Part shown: one piece after another, positions 5,775-59,979 of the stretch | Numbering within the stretch: position 1 is the stretch's first letter | Layout: each line of letters starts with the position of its first letter | Virus record (IMG/VR): IMGVR_UViG_2565956708_000007 | Length of the DNA stretch: 64,000 nt | Direction: 5' to 3' (one strand) | From: a virus | Lineage: Duplodnaviria > Heunggongvirae > Uroviricota > Caudoviricetes | Translations under genes and position numbers: made by a program | Notes under the pieces: generated by a model | Told to the model about the DNA's origin: nothing | What the model saw: the letters and a program-made list of their open reading frames with translations, nothing else | Databases searched by the model: none

Positions 5775-8762
5775 ATGAGCTTAAGCGATCAGGTGGTAAT
5801 GGCCACCAGCATAGAAACGCTGATCGAGCTGCTAAAGAACCTGCCCGATTATGGGCGGGTTTCGTATGTGGTGACAGCGAAGGGAGACGAGGTAAAAACA
5901 GCGTTTGATATCGTCGATGCCTCAGCTCTTTTGGTATCCAATACTCTGGATGGGAAAATTAATCCTGACTATCCCCAGGAACTTCAGCCGCGCGACCGGA
6001 CCCGCGCATCCAGCCTTCTTCAGGTTAACCAGATATCCAAAGATTTGCGGCCAGCTCAGCTTACTGATTCCGGTTTATCCAGCCATGGTGCGCCAATAAT
6101 TGGTGAGGACAATGCCGTTGAGTCAGGTAATGGGCGGACCATGGGGATCATTAAAGCCTATCAGGACGGTAATGCGGATCGGTATCGGGAGTACCTGATT
6201 GAACATGCGACCGAATTCGGCATACGGCCTGAAAAGGTTGAATCAATGACGGCTCCGGTACTGGTGCGCCGCCGGTTAACGAAGGTTGACCGTGTTCAGT
6301 TTGCCAAGGACTCAAATATTTCTGATCTCCAGGAAATGGCAGCCAGTGAAAAGGCTTTTGTTGATGCCGACAGCATAACACCGGCGATGATGGCGTTGTT
6401 TAACCCGTCAGAAAGTGGAGATCTGCTTAGCCGCAGTAATGACGCGTTTATTCGCGGATTTATGACGCAAGTTGGTGCCACACAGGCGGCTGGCCTTGTA
6501 ACTGAAGATGGGCGACCAACACGGCAACTTGTAGACCGTATACAAAACGCGATCTTTGCCAAGGCATATAAGGATGCGCGCCTGGTAAGGATGGTTGCAG
6601 AAGAACCTGATCCGGATATGCGTAATGTTCTGACGGCGCTTAATGCGGCAGCCAATGATTTTGTCCAGATGCAGGCTTTATCAGGAGAAGCGCACAAGCA
6701 GGCTGTGACAACTATTGTTGATGGCATTGAGACAGCGGATTGCCTCGATAAAAAGGCGCTGGCGGCATTGAAAGATGCGGTAGACCTGGTAAGGCAATCG
6801 AAGGAGTCAGGCCAGCATATTACCGATGTTATTGCTCAGGGGGATATGTTCAGCGAAACGGCCCCGGAAGTGAAAGCACTCGCGTTGTTCATCGTCGCGA
6901 ATAACCGTAGCGCGAAGCGTATGGCCACCGCCTTTAAGTTGATGGCTCAACGTATCAATGATGAGTTACAGCACCAGGGCCAGGCGCTGGGGGATATGTT
7001 TGGCGGCGGCGATGTGTCGTTACAGGATATCCTTCGCCAGGTGTCTCAGGAACTGGAAAACGAAGGCATGCAAGGGATATCCGGCGGTCTTTTCGAGTCC
7101 GTTTCCGGCGGTAGTTACAACGGTGTTGCTCCGTATACCAGTTTGCTATTACATCGGGCATCCGGCATCAAAGACATTATTCATCTGATCAGGCTGCTTT
7201 CCCGCACAGATCCCCAGGATGAACAGCTTGTACAAGTGCTTGCGCATTTTGTTCGAATGCCTGTTGCCGACGTGAAAAAATGGTGCCGATTATTCGGTAT
7301 CAGCAATTCGTTACTTCGCGGCTTGTTAAATCACGCATCCTCCCTTGGGCGCGATGGCTTTGACGAGATAGCGCAGGCGATAAAAAACGGAGATATGCCA
7401 CCAGCTATTGACTGGTTTTCCATTCGCCCAACCAGGGTGAAAGCATTCCTTAGCGCGGCGCATTCGGCATCACCATTGGCAGAAATGGTTCAGAGGTTGT
7501 CGCTCATATTCACAGACCATACCGCGTTGGGTGACCTGACTCTGGACGAGATGAAAGAAGCCTCCATTCAGTGGGCCGATCAACAAAATGAGGTTAACTC
7601 AGACTTCTTGCCAGCATTCAGGAAGGCCGTTAGTAAAGCGGATGATGCCCGTGGAATTCTGAAGGCATTTAAGGCATTGCAAAGTCGTGTTAATAAACAT
7701 GTCGGTGATATCGATGGGGTAACGGCGGAAGGCCGGGATATCCTTAAAGAGCACGGCATAACGCCAGAGTTTATTGATGAGATCAGGACTGATATGCAGC
7801 GTGAGGTCGTATCGTCCCTGCAAATCGTAGCCAGAGCGTTGGCGGATGCTAATCCGAAGAGTGCGGCCATTGTTAACCGTGTTATTGGTGATATTGAAGC
7901 ATCGGAGGGCATGGGGGCGCTGAAACTCTTCCTTTCGCGAGCGTTTAATCCTAACGGCAATATTCTCCCCGGCATTATTGGTGAGGCTAAAAAGTATGTC
8001 AGCGAAGAAGAACTTGAGCATCTTGACCAACTACTTAAGCGATTCTCATATAACCCGCAGACACGCTGGCAAATGAATCAGCAAAGTATGGGTTCGGTCC
8101 ACGAGAAAGTGTTATCTGCCATGAACAGTGCGATCGCCAACTCATCCGTATCTGAAGAAAAAGCTCTTGAGTGGGCTGACTCTTTTATCACGGAAGAAGT
8201 GGAAGAAGCCCGCGCTGGACAGAATGGTGGGATAGACCTGCGCAAGGAACTTGCTGATATTTATCGCCTGACCGGCGGTAAAATTTCGACCTTATCAAAG
8301 GTGGTTCACCACCAGGGAAGGGCATATGCAAATATTAATGGTGTTGTTGCTGTCAATTTGAACGATGAAAATGCAAGTGCACTGTGGCACGAGCTGGGTC
8401 ATCATCTTGAGTACAGTAACCCTGGTTTGTTAGAGAAAGCCCGGTCATTCCTGAAGGCCAATGTTGAAGGGGATAAGCCATCTTTCGTTAATATCGGTGG
8501 GCGTGGCAAGCCTGAATGGTGCTTCAGATCTCGATTGAGTAATATTTATATGGCGAAGGTATACCCGCCAGCCTCAGTAAGTAACACCGGGAAAATTCGG
8601 CAGAAATCACCGACTATTTCCAAAACGTCAGCAACGGAAGTATTCTCTATGGCTCTTCAGTTGTATCATGACAAAGAGGCCGCTGCCGCATCACTGATGA
8701 ATGGTGACGGATTGCTGGAACTGTTATTAGGTGTGGCAAAGGAGCTAAATAATGCAGATTAA
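5775..8762 (+). CDS. ddrB: DdrB, large Dar operon protein; contains an HExxH zinc-metallopeptidase-like motif (WHELGHHLE)
   Basis: 995 aa ORF following ddrA; motif read from translation. Confidence 0.65.
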   Translation: MSLSDQVVMATSIETLIELLKNLPDYGRVSYVVTAKGDEVKTAFDIVDASALLVSNTLDGKINPDYPQELQPRDRTRASSLLQVNQISKDLRPAQLTDSGLSSHGAPIIGEDNAVESGNGRTMGIIKAYQDGNADRYREYLIEHATEFGIRPEKVESMTAPVLVRRRLTKVDRVQFAKDSNISDLQEMAASEKAFVDADSITPAMMALFNPSESGDLLSRSNDAFIRGFMTQVGATQAAGLVTEDGRPTRQLVDRIQNAIFAKAYKDARLVRMVAEEPDPDMRNVLTALNAAANDFVQMQALSGEAHKQAVTTIVDGIETADCLDKKALAALKDAVDLVRQSKESGQHITDVIAQGDMFSETAPEVKALALFIVANNRSAKRMATAFKLMAQRINDELQHQGQALGDMFGGGDVSLQDILRQVSQELENEGMQGISGGLFESVSGGSYNGVAPYTSLLLHRASGIKDIIHLIRLLSRTDPQDEQLVQVLAHFVRMPVADVKKWCRLFGISNSLLRGLLNHASSLGRDGFDEIAQAIKNGDMPPAIDWFSIRPTRVKAFLSAAHSASPLAEMVQRLSLIFTDHTALGDLTLDEMKEASIQWADQQNEVNSDFLPAFRKAVSKADDARGILKAFKALQSRVNKHVGDIDGVTAEGRDILKEHGITPEFIDEIRTDMQREVVSSLQIVARALADANPKSAAIVNRVIGDIEASEGMGALKLFLSRAFNPNGNILPGIIGEAKKYVSEEELEHLDQLLKRFSYNPQTRWQMNQQSMGSVHEKVLSAMNSAIANSSVSEEKALEWADSFITEEVEEARAGQNGGIDLRKELADIYRLTGGKISTLSKVVHHQGRAYANINGVVAVNLNDENASALWHELGHHLEYSNPGLLEKARSFLKANVEGDKPSFVNIGGRGKPEWCFRSRLSNIYMAKVYPPASVSNTGKIRQKSPTISKTSATEVFSMALQLYHDKEAAAASLMNGDGLLELLLGVAKELNNAD

Positions 8763-9063
8763 AATCGCAGCGCCATTAGGCGGAGATGCCATTATCGAAT
8801 TTGATGATAATGAAGAAGTTTCCGGGCGTTTAAGCATTATCTCCGGTGACATTACCGAGGACATGATCGCTGAAGCCATAGCTGGGGCAAATCCCAATAG
8901 CTATATGGGATTCGTTAACACCCTTGATGCTCCCGCAAGTGATGTTCTCCGAACGCTGCATCTTTACGCTGGCTGGTTTGTTGATTGGCCAGCAGTAGAT
9001 GGTGGCGATGAGGACGACGACGACGACGATTTTGGTGATCATGTAGACCAGATCGTATATTGA
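8752..9063 (+). CDS. Hypothetical acidic protein with poly-Asp tail (GGDEDDDDDDFGDHVDQIVY)
   Basis: 103 aa ORF overlapping the ddrB stop, last gene before a strong terminator. Confidence 0.4.
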   Translation: MQIKIAAPLGGDAIIEFDDNEEVSGRLSIISGDITEDMIAEAIAGANPNSYMGFVNTLDAPASDVLRTLHLYAGWFVDWPAVDGGDEDDDDDDFGDHVDQIVY

Positions 9064-9065
9064 AG

Positions 9066-9092
9066 AAATCCCGCCAATTGGCGGGATTTTTA
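9066..9092. terminator. Bidirectional rho-independent terminator (AAATCCCGCC AATT GGCGGGATTT)
   Basis: Perfect 10-bp stem, 4-nt loop, A-tract and T-tract flanks, between convergent genes. Confidence 0.6.
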
Positions 9093-9094
9093 CC

Positions 9095-10189
9095 TCACGA
9101 GAAACTCTTTTCTGATGTCAGCCAACAGTGCTCGTGCATATCTCTTGGTGGTTTTTCGACAAATGCCTCTTCAGCCACATCCTGCCAGGGGATTTGTTTA
9201 GCCCATTCAGTTATAGCGTTATGGTTTGCCGAGAATAACGGTATTGTATAGGCCTTCAGCCAGTCTAATGTGCTGGAGTTGTGTTTTTGAGCGTGATGTT
9301 TCGCATGGTGTTTGGCGATCACGATCGTAGGCACTACCCATTTACTACCGTCAGTCATTGTGAAGTGCATATTACGGGGAACAGATGACTTTTCCATCAA
9401 CTCCCGAATCCCGGGGAATTTCCCCAAGATCAATCGGCGATATTCATCGCTATTGCGCCCACCAAACTCTTTGGCTTTGAATTCAAGATATGCTTCAGAA
9501 ACGAGAGGTGAATCCTCTGTGTTTAGAGTTATCGCCGTGAAAAAACCAGCAGGATTGTTTTTACTATGGGCCAACCGGTGATGCGAATCATAAAAGTACC
9601 CTTTCTCGCGTTCCGATGGTTTCGACAGCAACAGCAGGCGCGAGTCATAATTGGTTAAATTGCCAGTTATCACTGCATGAGCGCGATCGCTGATTTCCGC
9701 CGAGTTAATAACGATGAAAAGATCGTGCGGTCCAGTAAAACCAGCCAGAGACTCTTCGTTATTCAGACAATAGGTTATATAGACGCATCCCCATGTTTCA
9801 CTGATATGCACCAACCCTTTGTCAGGGTGTATTCTGAAATAATTGCCAAGAAAAGGGTGTTTTTGGGTAACTCGCTCCCAATAACGGAACATATAGTCAA
9901 TTATTGTTTTTCGACAATCGTTAATCGCAGGAGAAACAACCACTGTACGGGAACACGAATACAGTATTGTTTGCAGGATGCTAATCACTGCCACAATAGA
10001 GGTTTCCCCAATACCATGTGGTGTGGTGGCAGTGATTTTGGCTCCGGTGTTCTTTATCGCGTTAATAATTTTTGCTTGATGAGGTGTTAACTCAATATCA
10101 AGCAACTCTTTTGCTGCCAGTTCCCAATTGTCTTTATACCGTTCTATCAGTGCTAACCAGGCAGATTCATTCTGTATACGATTAATCAC
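9095..10189 (-). CDS. PacB-like terminase large-subunit ATPase-domain paralog with degenerate Walker motifs, C-terminally truncated
   Basis: Clear similarity to the window's own PacB (e.g. LLLLSKPSEREKGYFYDSHHRLA vs [21 protein letters not shown]; ITLNTEDSPLV vs [11 protein letters not shown]), but Walker A GHGTGKS is PHGIGET and Walker B IIDEAS is VINSAE. Confidence 0.6.
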   Translation of the reverse strand: MINRIQNESAWLALIERYKDNWELAAKELLDIELTPHQAKIINAIKNTGAKITATTPHGIGETSIVAVISILQTILYSCSRTVVVSPAINDCRKTIIDYMFRYWERVTQKHPFLGNYFRIHPDKGLVHISETWGCVYITYCLNNEESLAGFTGPHDLFIVINSAEISDRAHAVITGNLTNYDSRLLLLSKPSEREKGYFYDSHHRLAHSKNNPAGFFTAITLNTEDSPLVSEAYLEFKAKEFGGRNSDEYRRLILGKFPGIRELMEKSSVPRNMHFTMTDGSKWVVPTIVIAKHHAKHHAQKHNSSTLDWLKAYTIPLFSANHNAITEWAKQIPWQDVAEEAFVEKPPRDMHEHCWLTSEKSFS

Positions 10190-10970
10190 TTTCCACCTCT
10201 TCCGTGGTGTTTTCTTGCAGTTCTGTTAATGCAGCACGACATAGGTTCCGGGCATTGGCTATAGCCACACTTTTGACTTCATCCGTCATCGTGCAGGTAA
10301 TGTACTGATCGAGTTCTTCAGCGCGGATGATGCTTTTGCCAATCAGAAACTGTATTTGCCATAGCAGATCGGCATCCATAATCAGAATTTCTGCCGGGCC
10401 TTCAGGGCCAGCCGGGAAGGAAACATAAGACTGTTTGCCAAGGCCGACAACTCGACAACTTGCTTCAAGAATTGCGCGCTTGAGGTCTGACTTTATAACG
10501 GAAACAGGTTGATTTTCACCAGTGATTACGCCGTTGACATGGAAAGGCATGTAGCTTGAAATACGCTCTACTTTCCACACGCCAGCAAGCGATCCTTCAT
10601 GCAGCACAATGGGGGTAACCGCGAGTTTCATCTCACCATATAACTGCTGGCAGATAGCTGGATTGCTGAATACATCTAAAGGCTCACATTCAAACAGCGG
10701 CGCAATCTGCATGAGGTCCATCATGGTCATCCCTGGGGTACGAGCAGTAATGAATTTGCGCATACCAGTATCCATTGCGCTCCAGATTGCTACACCATGC
10801 TTTTTGCTCACTTCTTCAGTAAAGCCAAGGTGGCACATGATGGTTTTTTCGATAGCCAGATCAGAGATAGAAACCTTTTCGCCAGGTACTCCATCATTAT
10901 TGATGGTCACTTCGACACTCTGGCCATTACGTAGGCGGTATTGAATGGTTTTAGTATTTTGTGCTGTCAT
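10182..10970 (-). CDS. Hypothetical protein, co-oriented downstream of ssb
   Basis: ORF with internal start MTAQNTK at 10970; longer track ORF starts at 11090. Confidence 0.45.
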   Translation of the reverse strand: MTAQNTKTIQYRLRNGQSVEVTINNDGVPGEKVSISDLAIEKTIMCHLGFTEEVSKKHGVAIWSAMDTGMRKFITARTPGMTMMDLMQIAPLFECEPLDVFSNPAICQQLYGEMKLAVTPIVLHEGSLAGVWKVERISSYMPFHVNGVITGENQPVSVIKSDLKRAILEASCRVVGLGKQSYVSFPAGPEGPAEILIMDADLLWQIQFLIGKSIIRAEELDQYITCTMTDEVKSVAIANARNLCRAALTELQENTTEEVESD

Positions 10971-11172
10971 AGTCTTTTCTCTGCTTAAAAACTGATGTAT
11001 TGCGTCTTCAGGTGGGTTAGGAATGTTTTCCCACCAGCGAAAGCAATATCTCGTGGTGTTCTGTTCGTTAAAAACGCGTGCCATTGCCAACTTTGGCGTT
11101 TTTTAGCGAGTTCGTGCTTTTGTTGGCGTTTGGACCACCGCTTTTCTTTCAGTCGTTTTTTACTCATAAACT

Positions 11173-11661
11173 CTAAAACGGAATATCGTCTTCAAAGTCC
11201 ATTGGAGGTTCGTTATTGGCGCTGCTCTGAGGTTTGCCGCCACCGCTGTATTGCTGGTGGTTTTGAGGTTGGTTTGACTGCCCCCAGCCATTTGAGGACT
11301 GTGAATCGTCGCGGCGAGTGTCGATCATTTGCATGGTGCCGCCCTGGCTGACGATAATTTCCGTCGTGTAACGTTCTACACCGGCGTCATCAGTCCACTT
11401 ACGGGTTTTAAGTTTCCCTTCGATGTAGACCTGAGAACCTTTTCGTAAATACTCACTCGCAATTTCAGCAAGTTTTCCGAACAAAACGACTTTATGCCAT
11501 TCTGTTTGCTCTTTCTGTTGGCCCGTTTGCTTATCGCGCCATGATTCATTCGTTGCGATGCTGAGTCTTCCGACTGCGCCGCCATTTGGTATATACCTGA
11601 TCTCCGGGTCTTGCCCCAGGGTACCAATCAGGATGACTTTGTTTACACCGCGTTGTGCCAC
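11173..11661 (-). CDS. ssb: Single-stranded DNA-binding protein
   Basis: Classic SSB OB-fold sequence, Gly/Gln-rich linker and acidic C-terminal tip DFEDDIPF. Confidence 0.92.
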
Positions 11662-11680
11662 TTTTCTTACCTTATAAAAT

Positions 11681-11697
11681 AAATTAATTAGAGCAAT
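11681..11697. promoter_or_regulatory. C1 operator-like 17-mer (AAATTAATTAGAGCAAT) upstream of ssb
   Basis: One mismatch to reverse consensus AAATTTATTAGAGCAAT. Confidence 0.55.
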
Positions 11698-11720
11698 AAT
11701 GTATATCTTTGAAACGTGGC

Positions 11721-11742
11721 TAACAAGTGATTTGCATTATCC
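11721..11742 (+). promoter_or_regulatory. Late-promoter-like element (TAACAAGTGATTTGCATTATCC) upstream of lyz
   Basis: Shares AACAAGTGA box plus -10-like hexamer with two other sites in the window. Confidence 0.35.
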
Positions 11743-11830
11743 TGTGCCTTCTAAAGGGATCGAGTCAGTCGGTATTGGCTGTGAATGAGTGTTTGTCCTG
11801 GAGCGTAAAAAATTCGCTTATGAGGTCTTT

Positions 11831-12388
11831 ATGAAGGGAAAAACAGCCGCAGGAGGCGGTGCAATTTGCGCTATCGCGGTGATGATTACCATCGTGATGG
11901 GTAATGGCAATGTGCGAACCAACCAGGCGGGGCTTGAGCTGATTGGTAACGCTGAAGGTTGCCGACGTGATCCATACATGTGCCCGGCGGGGGTATGGAC
12001 TGACGGGATCGGTAATACACACGGGGTAACGCCGGGTGTGCGAAAAACCGACCAGCAAATCGCCGCTGATTGGGAAAAGAATATCCTGATCGCTGAACGC
12101 TGTATTAATCAGCACTTCCGGGGCAAAGACATGCCCGATAATGCCTTCAGTGCAATGACAAGCGCGGCATTCAATATGGGATGCAATAGCTTACGGACCT
12201 ACTACAGCAAAGCGCGAGGCATGCGAGTAGAAACGTCCATCCACAAGTGGGCGCAGAAAGGGGAATGGGTGAATATGTGTAACCATCTCCCTGATTTCGT
12301 GAACAGTAACGGCGTGCCCCTGCGAGGTTTAAAGATTCGCCGTGAAAAAGAACGCCAGCTTTGCCTGACGGGGCTTGTCAATGAATAA
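11831..12388 (+). CDS. lyz: SAR endolysin Lyz
   Basis: MKGKTAAGGGAICAIAVMITIVMG N-terminal signal-arrest-release segment followed by a lysozyme domain; internal start chosen at 11831. Confidence 0.88.
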   Translation: MKGKTAAGGGAICAIAVMITIVMGNGNVRTNQAGLELIGNAEGCRRDPYMCPAGVWTDGIGNTHGVTPGVRKTDQQIAADWEKNILIAERCINQHFRGKDMPDNAFSAMTSAAFNMGCNSLRTYYSKARGMRVETSIHKWAQKGEWVNMCNHLPDFVNSNGVPLRGLKIRREKERQLCLTGLVNE

Positions 12389-28907: not shown

Positions 28908-30392
28908 TTATTCATTAAGCCATGCCAGAGCTTCATCAACCTGCGCTTCGTCTTCGACGCTAAGCACTTCATCCTGGGGAACATAATCAGCCAGCATAGC
29001 GAAACAATATGTATCCCAATGGTCTGGTGAGTGCAGGTTGAGTTTTTTCTTCATATCCTCCTTACTCATCACCTTCCATTGACCTGCGGAGTTAATCCCT
29101 ACAGGGATTTTCGACGCTTCCTCAATAGTTTCATTACCCTTATCCAGTCTCATACGACCAGATTTTACGGCCTCTGCGGCTTGAACGTTGGCATAAGCAC
29201 GCTTATCAAAGTACAGGCTCTTATCTTCACGGCTATGCATCTTTTTACCCCAGCGTATACGCTGTACGGTAATACCATAATACTCGTACATCAGATCCGC
29301 CGTTGCTTTACCCAGGCCATCGCCGTCTATCGCTATGGTGATATTTGGGAATCGCTCAGGATTACATTCTGCGAAAATTTTGGCGGCAAGCTGCGTTTCT
29401 GTAACGTCTGTGTATTCCAGCATTCGATAGTTGATTACACGGCGTTTATTTCTCTGGCCGGACACCATCATGATATTGATAACGGACTTATCCCGTCCCG
29501 TACCACCAGCAACGTCCACACATGCAAGCCAGCCCCATCCTTTGGCAATCTTGACTTTCCGCCGCGTCGCACGTTCAACCTCATCACGTCCAAGAAGGAA
29601 GCCATCCTGTGATTTAGGGAATAGTCCGCGTACTTTAATCATGTACATAGGGTTATCACGCCCGCCGTACTCCGCCAGCTTCATTTTGATAAATGCTGGC
29701 GTTACCAGCGGTGATTCCTCACTGTTAAGCGTGATCGCCGTATAAACGCCATCAGGGTTACCAGGACGCTTGGCCAGTTTATGGTGAGTATCGTAGAAAT
29801 AGCCGCTTGGGCGTGTAGGCTGTGACAGTAATAAGATGCGGTTATCCTGTCCGGTAAGAGCACCAGTGATGATACCGAAAGCTCTATCACTGACACCGGA
29901 GGCTTCATCGATAATATACAGAAGATGATCTGCGTGTTCACCGGCGAGAGCTTCTTCACTTCCCAGACGAAAGCCCTTCGGTACTACAGTCCATACACCT
30001 TTACCAGTAACCTCATAGAAAGCGGTTTCTGTCAGAACAAAATAATCAGCAAGCCATGGAAAACGGCTGGTGGCAGTAGCCCAGTTTATCTTGATGTACT
30101 TGAATATACCGGTCATTACCTGCTGAATTTTGTTCGCAACGATAATGGCGCGGGCACCGGGATACATGATTATGAACAACATGATCATGATAGAAGTCAT
30201 GTCTGATTTCCCGGTACCGTGACCAGACGAAACAGATGTCTTGCTACCCTGTTCCTGCACAGACTCAATAATCAGATCCTGCTGCCAGGTAGGTGTTTTG
30301 CCGAACAAAACATCAGCGGCCGCAATCCAGTCATAACGATATAGCGCCACCAGCTCGCGCCAACGTGGATCCGTTACGCAACTTCTGGCCAT
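28908..30392 (-). CDS. pacB: PacB, terminase large subunit
   Basis: 494 aa; Walker A GHGTGKS, Walker B IIDEASG. Confidence 0.88.
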
Positions 30393-31585
30393 TAATCATC
30401 ATCCCCGTATAGCTTGCGGGTAACTTCTTCGTCTTCCTCCTCGTCTTCGTCCAGGTCTTGTTCCAGCCATGGGTCGTTTGATACACCTTCAGTATCAACA
30501 TCTCCATAACCGCCTGTATCAACAATATCGGCGATTTCTTCCCTACGCTGCTCAATCCACAATGCGGCATCGGCGCGGCGGTTGGCGGCCCGTTCTCGCG
30601 CAACTTTGTCCAGATCTTCAAGAGAAGGGCCACCGACGGCTGTTTGCCTTTCCTCATCATCGGTATTGGTCTTAGGAGCACGCAGATCGGCTTTGATTTG
30701 CTCCAGCATCAGGGGCGGTACTTTCCCTCCATGCGCCTCGATGAATTCAGCTGCCTCCAGCACTGACCAGTTGTTTTCACGCTTTCGTTCGTATGCCAGC
30801 TTAACAATGCCAGCTTGCCCCATAGACAAAGCGTGCTTTTCCGCCTCCCGGCTTTCTTTTCGATAGTTATTCCGGATGCTGTAAATGGTGTTGATCAGGC
30901 TGCTTATCTGCGCGGAACAGCTGTTTAGCATGCTCGCGATACGGTATTCAGGCGGAGTTCCTTCATCATCGTCTTTTTGCTGATCGCGCATTTCCTGAAC
31001 CAAGCGAATACACGTATCCCTGGCGTTCTCCAGCATAAGGAGATGAGAGAGAGACTTTTCCAGAAGAGTGGTTTCCAGAACATCAGCCCCGGACCGACGC
31101 AACATAGCGCGCGCGGCCTTCCGCGCTTCAACGTTATCTATCAGGTAATCGCCAGCTTCGAATTCAAAGCGTTCACCATCATCATCCAGGGTGTCGCGTT
31201 CCAGGCGATCACGTAAGGTCCGGTGGGCGCGGGTGATCACGTCATGATCATCAGAACGATCATTTATGCGCTTATTCTGGCGCTTCGCGTTCTCGACTGC
31301 GGCACTGACAACAGCATTAACTCTTTGTTTTTCAGCCATTTCAGCCACAATGTGATCACCTGCACGTTGATCATTAGCGTGATCAATGATCATGCTTTTT
31401 AGTGGTTTTCTGACAGGCTTATTTGGCTTACGGCTGTCCGCTGTTCCGGTGTCTTCTTTGAATGCACGGAGATAACGACGTGCGGTGTTTGGGTTGAGAT
31501 TAAACTCGGCGGCATATTGTGCGATGGTGTAACCACCATCTCGCGCCAGGCGAGCAAAATTCTTCTTGTGATCGTCCCAGGTCAC
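30392..31585 (-). CDS. pacA: PacA, terminase small subunit / pac recognition
   Basis: 397 aa; N-terminal HTH-like region; contains the GATC-hexamer pac cluster. Confidence 0.85.
31230..31395. other. pac packaging site (clustered TGATCA/G hexamers, 3 + 4, flanking a central cleavage region)
   Basis: GATC-containing hexamers at about 31234, 31245, 31257 and 31353, 31369, 31381, 31388 inside the pacA 5' region. Confidence 0.7.
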
Positions 31586-59951: not shown

Positions 59952-59979
59952 ATTACACTAATAAATTTATTAGAGCAAT
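59952..59979. promoter_or_regulatory. Overlapping inverted pair of C1 operators (ATTACACTAATAAATTTATTAGAGCAAT) on the dmt stop codon
   Basis: Right half is a perfect match to the reverse consensus; sits at the head of the minus-strand tRNA / plp / ban operon. Confidence 0.7.

Follow-up and report, generated by a model that had tools for sequence, protein, structure and literature searches.

Large terminases rank among the best-conserved proteins of phages and serve bacterial immune receptors as signatures of infection. The canonical TerL ATPases (T4 gp17 type) are packaging motors of the additional strand, catalytic E (ASCE) class, and PacB is the large terminase of P1, P7, D6 and other P1-like phage-plasmids. 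Here we describe a relative of PacB that has lost the catalytic residues. It is encoded by a 364-aa open reading frame (ORF) within a 64,000-nucleotide stretch of DNA (IMG/VR record IMGVR_UViG_2565956708_000007; the whole stretch is referred to below as the window). The window comes from a P1-like (Punavirus) phage-plasmid, with positions 8000–12000 being 96–99% identical to several Punavirus records. We call the ORF product the pseudo-terminase.

The closest described protein is PacB itself, which belongs to the same phage group and has a homologous N-terminal ATPase-fold domain. The two proteins share the Q motif, the HGxG backbone of the P-loop, LLLSxP, FYDSHH and a GG...FPG block. Unlike PacB, the pseudo-terminase has no P-loop lysine, Walker B aspartate, catalytic glutamate or nuclease domain, and it carries an unrelated 97-aa C-terminal domain. 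Its gene also differs from pacB in lying in the ssb operon, in being optional and hypervariable, and in not adjoining a small terminase gene. The relationship to canonical TerL proteins is more distant: an ASCE fold can be ascribed to the pseudo-terminase through PacB and through a weak match to PHROG_2, and with the motor-defining residues absent it would be a pseudo-enzyme relative of these motors. A possible functional analogy is provided by the Ppi proteins of Staphylococcus aureus pathogenicity islands (SaPIs) and the Rpp proteins of phage-inducible chromosomal islands (PICIs), which are satellite-encoded packaging interference proteins and not terminase homologues. The analogy would lie in non-enzymatic binding to the packaging machinery; there is no sequence relationship and the pseudo-terminase is phage-encoded.

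Literature searches on dead or second terminase paralogues and on terminase decoys, for which subscription papers were mostly outside coverage, returned nothing relevant, and the literature searched described no pseudo-terminase that serves as a weapon in counter-defence or competition. As far as this literature goes, what is new is a catalytically dead, nuclease-less terminase paralogue that is under selection, with a hypervariable terminase-like domain and a new domain architecture. That the ORF has never been studied is explained by its absence from laboratory P1. Its carriers are P1-like phage-plasmids that also spread resistance genes.

The N-terminal domain is a PacB paralogue that lacks catalytic residues

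The original prediction, made from the DNA letters and their translations, described the ORF as a paralogue of the window's own PacB limited to the ATPase domain. A pairwise BLASTP alignment of the two proteins bore this out: of 266 aligned residues, 35% were identical and 58% scored as positives (E 5e-55, i.e. well past chance), and the alignment spanned residues 11–272 of the ORF and 11–274 of PacB. In profile searches the two proteins had PHROG 5902 in common, and both matched the large-terminase family phrog_2 (E 4.3e-9 for the ORF and 3.3e-40 for PacB). Searches using tblastn with the ORF also matched annotated terminases. The nuclease domain is missing, as had been claimed, since ORF residues 273–364 gave no BLASTP alignment with the nuclease half of PacB (residues 275–494). 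The features compared are as follows:

9095..10189, minus strand: pseudo-terminase gene, 364 aa; PacB-type ATPase-fold domain without catalytic residues plus a small C-terminal domain
9389..10189, minus strand: pseudo-terminase N-terminal domain, aa 1–267; PacB/TerL ATPase-domain homologue, hypervariable among D6-like plasmids that are otherwise near-identical
10001..10021, minus strand: degenerate Walker A motif PHGIGET, aa 57–63; PacB counterpart GHGTGKS
9695..9715, minus strand: degenerate Walker B motif IVINSAE, aa 159–165; PacB counterpart IIDEAS
9098..9388, minus strand: pseudo-terminase C-terminal domain, aa 268–364; ~100-aa phage family, MPDGSxWxVP ... DWAxNNMxWxDV
28908..30392, minus strand: pacB, 494 aa; functional large terminase with GHGTGKS and IIDEAS intact

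The Walker A motif lies at residues 57–63 in both proteins. It reads GHGTGKS in PacB and PHGIGET in the ORF, exactly as predicted, with the P-loop lysine changed to glutamate. The Walker B motif is also degenerate, but the string originally given for it (VINSAE) was one residue out of register. In the alignment, IIDEAS of PacB (residues 160–165) is opposite IVINSA of the ORF (residues 159–164), such that the aspartate is replaced by isoleucine and the catalytic glutamate by asparagine. A sequencing error behind the degenerate motifs was excluded: the same motifs were present in all six close relatives that were translated (window included), the DNA is at least 93% identical in 100 complete Escherichia coli genomes, and in diverged homologues the same positions hold other non-canonical residues.

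We then compared the catalytic residues across an alignment of 14 sequences, comprising six members of the pseudo-terminase family and eight genuine PacB/TerL proteins. All eight of the genuine terminases kept the S-G-x-G-x-G-K-[ST] and h-h-h-D-E-A-[SA]-G motifs. In all six family members the P-loop lysine was replaced (by E, R, Q, H or T), as was the Walker B aspartate in every member (by I, V, T or M), and the position of the catalytic glutamate was variable (N, D, E, D). The motifs shared with PacB were retained throughout the family (the Q motif, HGxG, LLLSxP and FYDSHH, with the last block in the form GGxNSDxYRR..LGxFPG), and conservation between the ORF and PacB extends to the first 50 residues and to several surface blocks. 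Varied catalytic substitutions combined with a conserved scaffold are the pattern expected of a pseudo-enzyme that has been kept for a non-catalytic role. We infer that the protein would be unable to power packaging or to cut DNA, and that it would act by binding.

In a neighbour-joining tree of the ATPase domain, drawn without support values, the pseudo-terminase family was monophyletic and was sister to the PacB clade, Vibrio PacB included. P1-type and D6-type PacB share 57% identity, but the family is equally far from both, at ~35% identity to either. Therefore, the split between the paralogues is old. At the level of sequence comparison, these data show that the N-terminal domain of the ORF is an ancient paralogue of the P1-type PacB ATPase domain.

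General family searches added little. Pfam searches gave nothing for the ORF, for PacB or for IsaA (the product of the gene upstream of the ORF), and NCBIfam and PADLOC searches gave nothing for the ORF or IsaA. None of the PADLOC-DB defence models matched the ORF, Hxr or IsaA. No terminase was among the PDB chains recovered by sequence or profile searches, in which the full-length family profile produced only a chance helicase P-loop.

The C-terminal domain belongs to a phage family of ~100 residues

When residues 268–364 were searched alone against 1.84 billion cluster representatives, 152 matches were obtained at E<=1e-3. Most were stand-alone proteins of 95–120 aa with the pattern MPDGSxWxVP..IAxxRAxxYA..TLPLF..DWAxNNMxWxDV..GW. 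A profile search added 62 more matches, none of which was annotated. The domain corresponds to the C-terminal part of PHROG 17928 (phrog_17928, E 9.2e-15); the alignment covers the MPDGSxW hairpin and the DWAxxxxW helix, and W68 is invariant.

An AlphaFold2 model of the domain, built from a 75-sequence alignment, had a predicted local distance difference test score (pLDDT) of 94 and consisted of a beta-hairpin, three helices, a strand and a further helix. Comparison of the structure and profile with solved structures gave no convincing match, the best profile match being a weak and unrelated one (3ic3, E 0.12), and a Foldseek search of the model against BFVD returned uncharacterised phage proteins only. 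Pfam holds no model for the family. As judged by these searches, the C-terminal region is shown to be a separate domain, unrelated to terminase, that is widespread in phages as stand-alone proteins. Given the lack of a Pfam model and a confident fold without a match among solved structures, the ~100-aa stand-alone family is a candidate new domain family.

Most members of this family are stand-alone or are fused to coiled-coil regions; in the ORF and in one other protein, P0019, the domain is instead fused to a dead terminase ATPase domain. P0019 (contig L017, 6001–8384) has the reverse order, i.e. the small domain followed by a PacB-like N-terminus, with the sequence GSGTGTT and no P-loop lysine. 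The P0019 gene is cut by a Tn3-type transposase gene, and the same contig has genes for AbiH and a RecA-dependent nuclease close by.

The genes for the stand-alone homologues were found mostly amid small early genes (contigs L006, L007, L009, L028, L029 and L031, besides the Mu-like contigs). Their contexts included a lambdoid early-left region, a site between DNA polymerase and RecA genes, and a site near thymidylate synthase. In two related Mu-like contigs (L008, 6001–6294; L030, 5001–5294), the gene was directly upstream of those for a DUF1804 small terminase, the large terminase and the portal. These contexts show no consistent functional theme.

The gene is optional, intact and under purifying selection

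Among 5,426 complete E. coli genomes, 100 (about 2%) had the 1.1-kb ORF segment at 93–100% identity, making the gene a common one in nature, and 99 of its 101 places were on plasmids. It was also found in 162 PLSDB plasmids (at least 80% coverage) and in three phage records. Among the complete E. coli genomes, the P1-type pacB gene was found in 599, isaA in 335, the Tad2-like gene described below in 213 and the ORF in 100. About 17% of the P1-type elements in these genomes thus carry the ORF, which is an optional cassette; P1, P7, SJ46 and D6 all lack it. More distant homologues, 50–53% identical, occur in three D6-like phage-plasmids (L003, L004 and L023) and in a metagenomic Caudoviricetes contig (P0002).

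All eight of the copies sampled were intact and full-length. The pairwise ratio of non-synonymous to synonymous substitution rates (dN/dS) among orthologues was 0.28–0.46 overall and was below 1 in each domain (0.16–0.50 across pairs). By this measure of the coding sequence, the gene is shown to be under purifying selection. A pseudogene reading of the ORF was rejected on account of the intact copies and the dN/dS values below 1.

The ORF and isaB occupy the same slot

It had also been suggested that the ORF might be the uninterrupted form of an ancestral gene that IS1 had split into isaA and isaB. A comparison with the P1 isaA/isaB region contradicted this. The isaA gene is intact and separate, and IsaB is unrelated to the ORF (best E 0.053). 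P1 DNA matches the window at 10181–11800 and at 8701–9061, with no match between. An IS1-split ancestral gene was therefore rejected, as no P1 DNA matches window 9062–10180.

In P1, IS1 sits in the intergenic region between isaA and isaB, with the 9-bp target sequence CAGAGGGCA perfectly duplicated on its two sides. Because this duplication is intact, the IS1 of P1 is a simple intergenic insertion, being neither within a coding sequence nor associated with an IS1-mediated deletion. In phage SJ46, the hairpin that follows the ORF in the window abuts the isaA stop codon directly. This junction makes the ORF a precise presence/absence cassette between the isaA stop codon and the hairpin. Judging from these alignments, a single slot holds either the ORF or, as in laboratory P1, isaB as an alternative cassette. 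Elsewhere, the interval between ssb and hxr is occupied by the following:

P1: isaB
Ro157c2YLVW: a 95-aa ORF
673R5: dGTPase-like genes
P7: the nmpC porin gene

The ssb–hxr interval has been published as a variable region of P1-like plasmids, under the names ‘RD-2’ (PMC6906374) and ‘region 2’ (PMC9603915).

The dead ATPase domain is hypervariable in D6-like plasmids

We compared the proteins of three D6-like plasmids, L003 (NZ_OY754396), L004 (CP057047) and L023 (Logan ERR4220894_83). The gene order is conserved in all three: pacA-pacB-c1-int-x-x-dut-Tad2-like-isaA-pseudo-terminase. The ranges of identity among the three plasmids were:

PacB: 92–98%
dut: 89–98%
Pseudo-terminase C-terminal domain: 96–97%
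Pseudo-terminase N-terminal domain: 52–75%
IsaA: 72–99%
Tad2-like protein: 69–82%

Within a backbone that is otherwise conserved, variation is greatest in the dead ATPase domain. This is seen most sharply between L003 and L004, where the nucleotide identity is ~100% up to the end of isaA, 44–68% over the dead ATPase domain and 86–95% in the C-terminal domain. For this pair, the N-terminal domain had a synonymous divergence (dS) of 1.3 and a dN/dS (omega) of 0.28, values which argue for a swap of long-diverged alleles and not for positive selection in situ. The variation of the N-terminal domain was independent of PacA, PacB and IsaA.

The whole stretch from the Tad2-like gene through isaA to the pseudo-terminase is strongly mosaic in the D6-like plasmids, with breakpoints at gene and domain borders and with flanks that are 89–98% identical. 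In its sequence pattern this stretch behaves like an allele-shuffling hotspot.

The ORF follows isaA and, in most loci, a Tad2-like gene

Nine loci were examined (the window, L002, L003, L004, L005, L014, L015, L016 and L023). Every one of them has the ORF immediately behind isaA, the stop codon of isaA overlapping the start codon of the ORF, and six of them also have a Tad2-like gene (PF11195/DUF2829, E 1e-18 to 1e-23) directly upstream of isaA. Tad2/DUF2829 proteins have been shown experimentally to be anti-Thoeris sponges (bioRxiv 10.1101/2023.05.01.538930). The position of the Tad2-like gene marks the module as a plausible counter-defence locus; the Tad2-like protein has no homology to the ORF, and its gene is cleanly absent from the window.

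The IsaA protein of the window is 93% identical to P1 IsaA and 47–48% identical to the IsaA homologues of the D6-like plasmids. The isaA gene is more widely spread than the ORF, occurring in 477 PLSDB plasmids versus 162. No match to IsaA was found in family or sequence searches; its AlphaFold2 model was poor (pLDDT 58), and a Foldseek search of the PDB with this model was empty. The possibility that IsaA is a paralogue of PacA, the small terminase, was rejected as there is no similarity.

At window positions 10960–11172, between ssb and isaA, both the window and P1 are without the Tad2-like gene. Comparison with many P1-like plasmids (L013 and L016, with a longer version in L010) showed a clean ~650-bp indel. 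As a result of this indel, isaA in the window starts at ATG 10970, which is the start codon of the Tad2-like gene in relatives. A 302-aa ORF with a TTG start in the window and the 320-aa IsaA annotation in the P1 RefSeq record both look over-extended at the 5′ end.

The predicted operon is preceded by a C1 operator and followed by a hairpin

The site of the ORF is flanked by hxr (plus strand), which is at the end of the ddrA-ddrB-hxr cluster, and by ssb (minus strand). The other features of the interval are:

9066..9089, both strands: terminator-like G+C-rich hairpin, 10 bp; folding energy −20.9 kcal/mol, z −4.4
10182..10970, minus strand: isaA, 262 aa from ATG 10970; upstream partner, with a stop codon that overlaps the pseudo-terminase start
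11173..11661, minus strand: ssb; first gene of the operon
11681..11697, minus strand: P1 C1 repressor operator (Ossb/Op21 equivalent); one mismatch to the consensus, 20 nt upstream of ssb

The pseudo-terminase starts with GTG, sharing GTGA with the isaA stop codon, and GAGGTG is found just before the start. Its stop codon is at 9095–9097 and that of the convergent hxr gene is at 9063, with the hairpin occupying the 31-nt gap between the two genes. Reading from ssb, a strong hairpin was found only 3′ of the pseudo-terminase. A simple promoter/terminator scan flagged neither this hairpin nor the known ssb promoters; the hairpin was confirmed by folding. Over positions 9000–10500 of the window, the G+C content falls to 41–47% across the pseudo-terminase and isaA, compared with 50–54% in the flanking ddrB and head genes.

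The original prediction had placed the ORF in a transcription unit with ssb and apart from the packaging genes, and the layout agreed. The pacA-pacB genes are at 28908–31585, ~19 kb from the pseudo-terminase, which comes after ssb and isaA on the same strand (9095–11661), with the C1 operator upstream of ssb and the strong hairpin only after the ORF. A search of the window with the 17-bp C1 operator consensus, allowing up to two mismatches, gave eight matches compared with 0 expected by chance. These are at 11681, 27374, 27457, 43765, 49531, 59952, 59963 and 63485, the pair at 59952–59979 being overlapping and on opposite strands, and they provide a map of the repressor-controlled promoters of the window's element.

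From the gene layout, and from the operator and promoters annotated at the homologous site in P1, we infer that ssb, isaA and the pseudo-terminase gene are co-transcribed and repressed by C1 in the P1 lineage. A search for a P1-type C1 operator near the D6-like modules found none. Therefore, repressor-controlled early expression is supported for the P1 lineage only.

Possible functions of the pseudo-terminase

The role that we consider the most plausible, while holding it tentatively, is that of a terminase-fold mimic that takes part in phage–host or phage–phage conflict by binding rather than by catalysis. The protein would be made early in lytic growth from the ssb operon, with its C1 operator, and would bind its partners together with IsaA, with which it probably forms a complex. 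It would then titrate or block a factor that normally engages the large terminase, which could be a host sensor or a competitor's packaging protein. We favour a role in conflict over one in the phage's own packaging because the ORF is optional, because the Tad2-like gene precedes isaA in six of the nine loci, and because nowhere does the backbone vary more than in the dead ATPase domain. A mimic or decoy of this kind would be a new counter-defence or competition strategy and would open a way into IsaA and the ~100-aa domain, both of which are unannotated families.

Several points weigh against this role. The retention of the ATPase fold in the N-terminal domain rests on sequence homology, and the proposed complex with IsaA is argued only from gene order and from the overlap of start and stop codons. 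The divergence of the N-terminal domain indicates allele exchange rather than demonstrated positive selection. The Tad2-like neighbour is a weak clue to function and is missing from the window, while the stand-alone homologues of the C-terminal domain are in mixed contexts, two of them adjoining Mu-type terminase genes, so that a link to packaging retains some probability. Finally, the nuclease domain and the active site with bound ATP are reportedly what Avs3 recognises in terminase. The ORF has neither, which argues against a simple Avs decoy, and we regard a specific Avs decoy mechanism as doubtful. Equally doubtful is a wider form of the idea, in which the pseudo-terminase would be a phage terminase decoy that catches terminase-recognising molecules (Avs-type receptors or a rival's small terminase), with the C-terminal domain and IsaA serving for assembly or neutralisation. 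Were the decoy reading true, the stand-alone proteins of ~100 aa could represent a new anti-defence domain.

An involvement in the phage's own packaging is unlikely, and yet it is the best of the other explanations. The pseudo-terminase would bind PacA, PacB or the portal, and would adjust when pac cleavage and headful packaging take place, or how specific or processive they are (e.g. by holding PacA inactive early in infection). Its closest relative is indeed the PacB of the same phage group, with which it shares the N-terminal 50 residues and several surface blocks; the module is only ~6 kb from pacA-pacB in the D6-like plasmids; and in the two Mu-like contigs a stand-alone homologue of the C-terminal domain is directly upstream of the TerS-TerL-portal genes. 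However, the ORF is dispensable: of the ~599 P1-type elements in complete E. coli genomes only ~100 carry it, and P1, P7, SJ46 and D6 do not. Its N-terminal domain differs by ~46% between plasmids that are 96–98% identical in PacA and PacB, with no co-variation with the terminase. Packaging genes are transcribed late, and the ORF is apparently under an early promoter with a C1 operator, away from those genes. If the pseudo-terminase does modulate packaging, it could affect transduction by natural P1-like elements.

Somewhat less probable again is that the pseudo-terminase works with Ssb and IsaA in early DNA metabolism, where the ASCE fold would serve as a scaffold for binding DNA or protein and its ancestry would be uninformative about its role. 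The ORF shares an operon with ssb in the P1-type elements, the module comes after dut in the D6-like plasmids, and among the stand-alone homologues of the C-terminal domain one is between DNA polymerase and RecA genes and another is near thymidylate synthase. The link with ssb is not conserved, however, as there is no ssb near the module in the D6-like plasmids; the constant neighbour is isaA and a frequent one is the Tad2-like gene. Hypervariable and optional genes would be unusual for core DNA metabolism, and the searches detected no DNA-binding motif or fold in the protein.

A decaying duplicate or recombination relic without function is very improbable: the catalytic residues are lost, and differ between alleles, the gene is optional and a dN/dS of ~0.3 is not very low, but none of the eight copies sampled is truncated or disrupted, even at up to 50% protein divergence, dN/dS is well under 1 in both domains, non-catalytic blocks are conserved with PacB, and two divergent phage-plasmid lineages have kept the fused domains, the gene order and the coupling to isaA.

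One unrelated peculiarity was seen in a genuine large terminase. That of Acinetobacter phage vB_AbaM_ABMM1 (L027, 682–2673) has an intein-like insertion of ~150 aa inside Walker A (SGHG / insertion / NTGKT).

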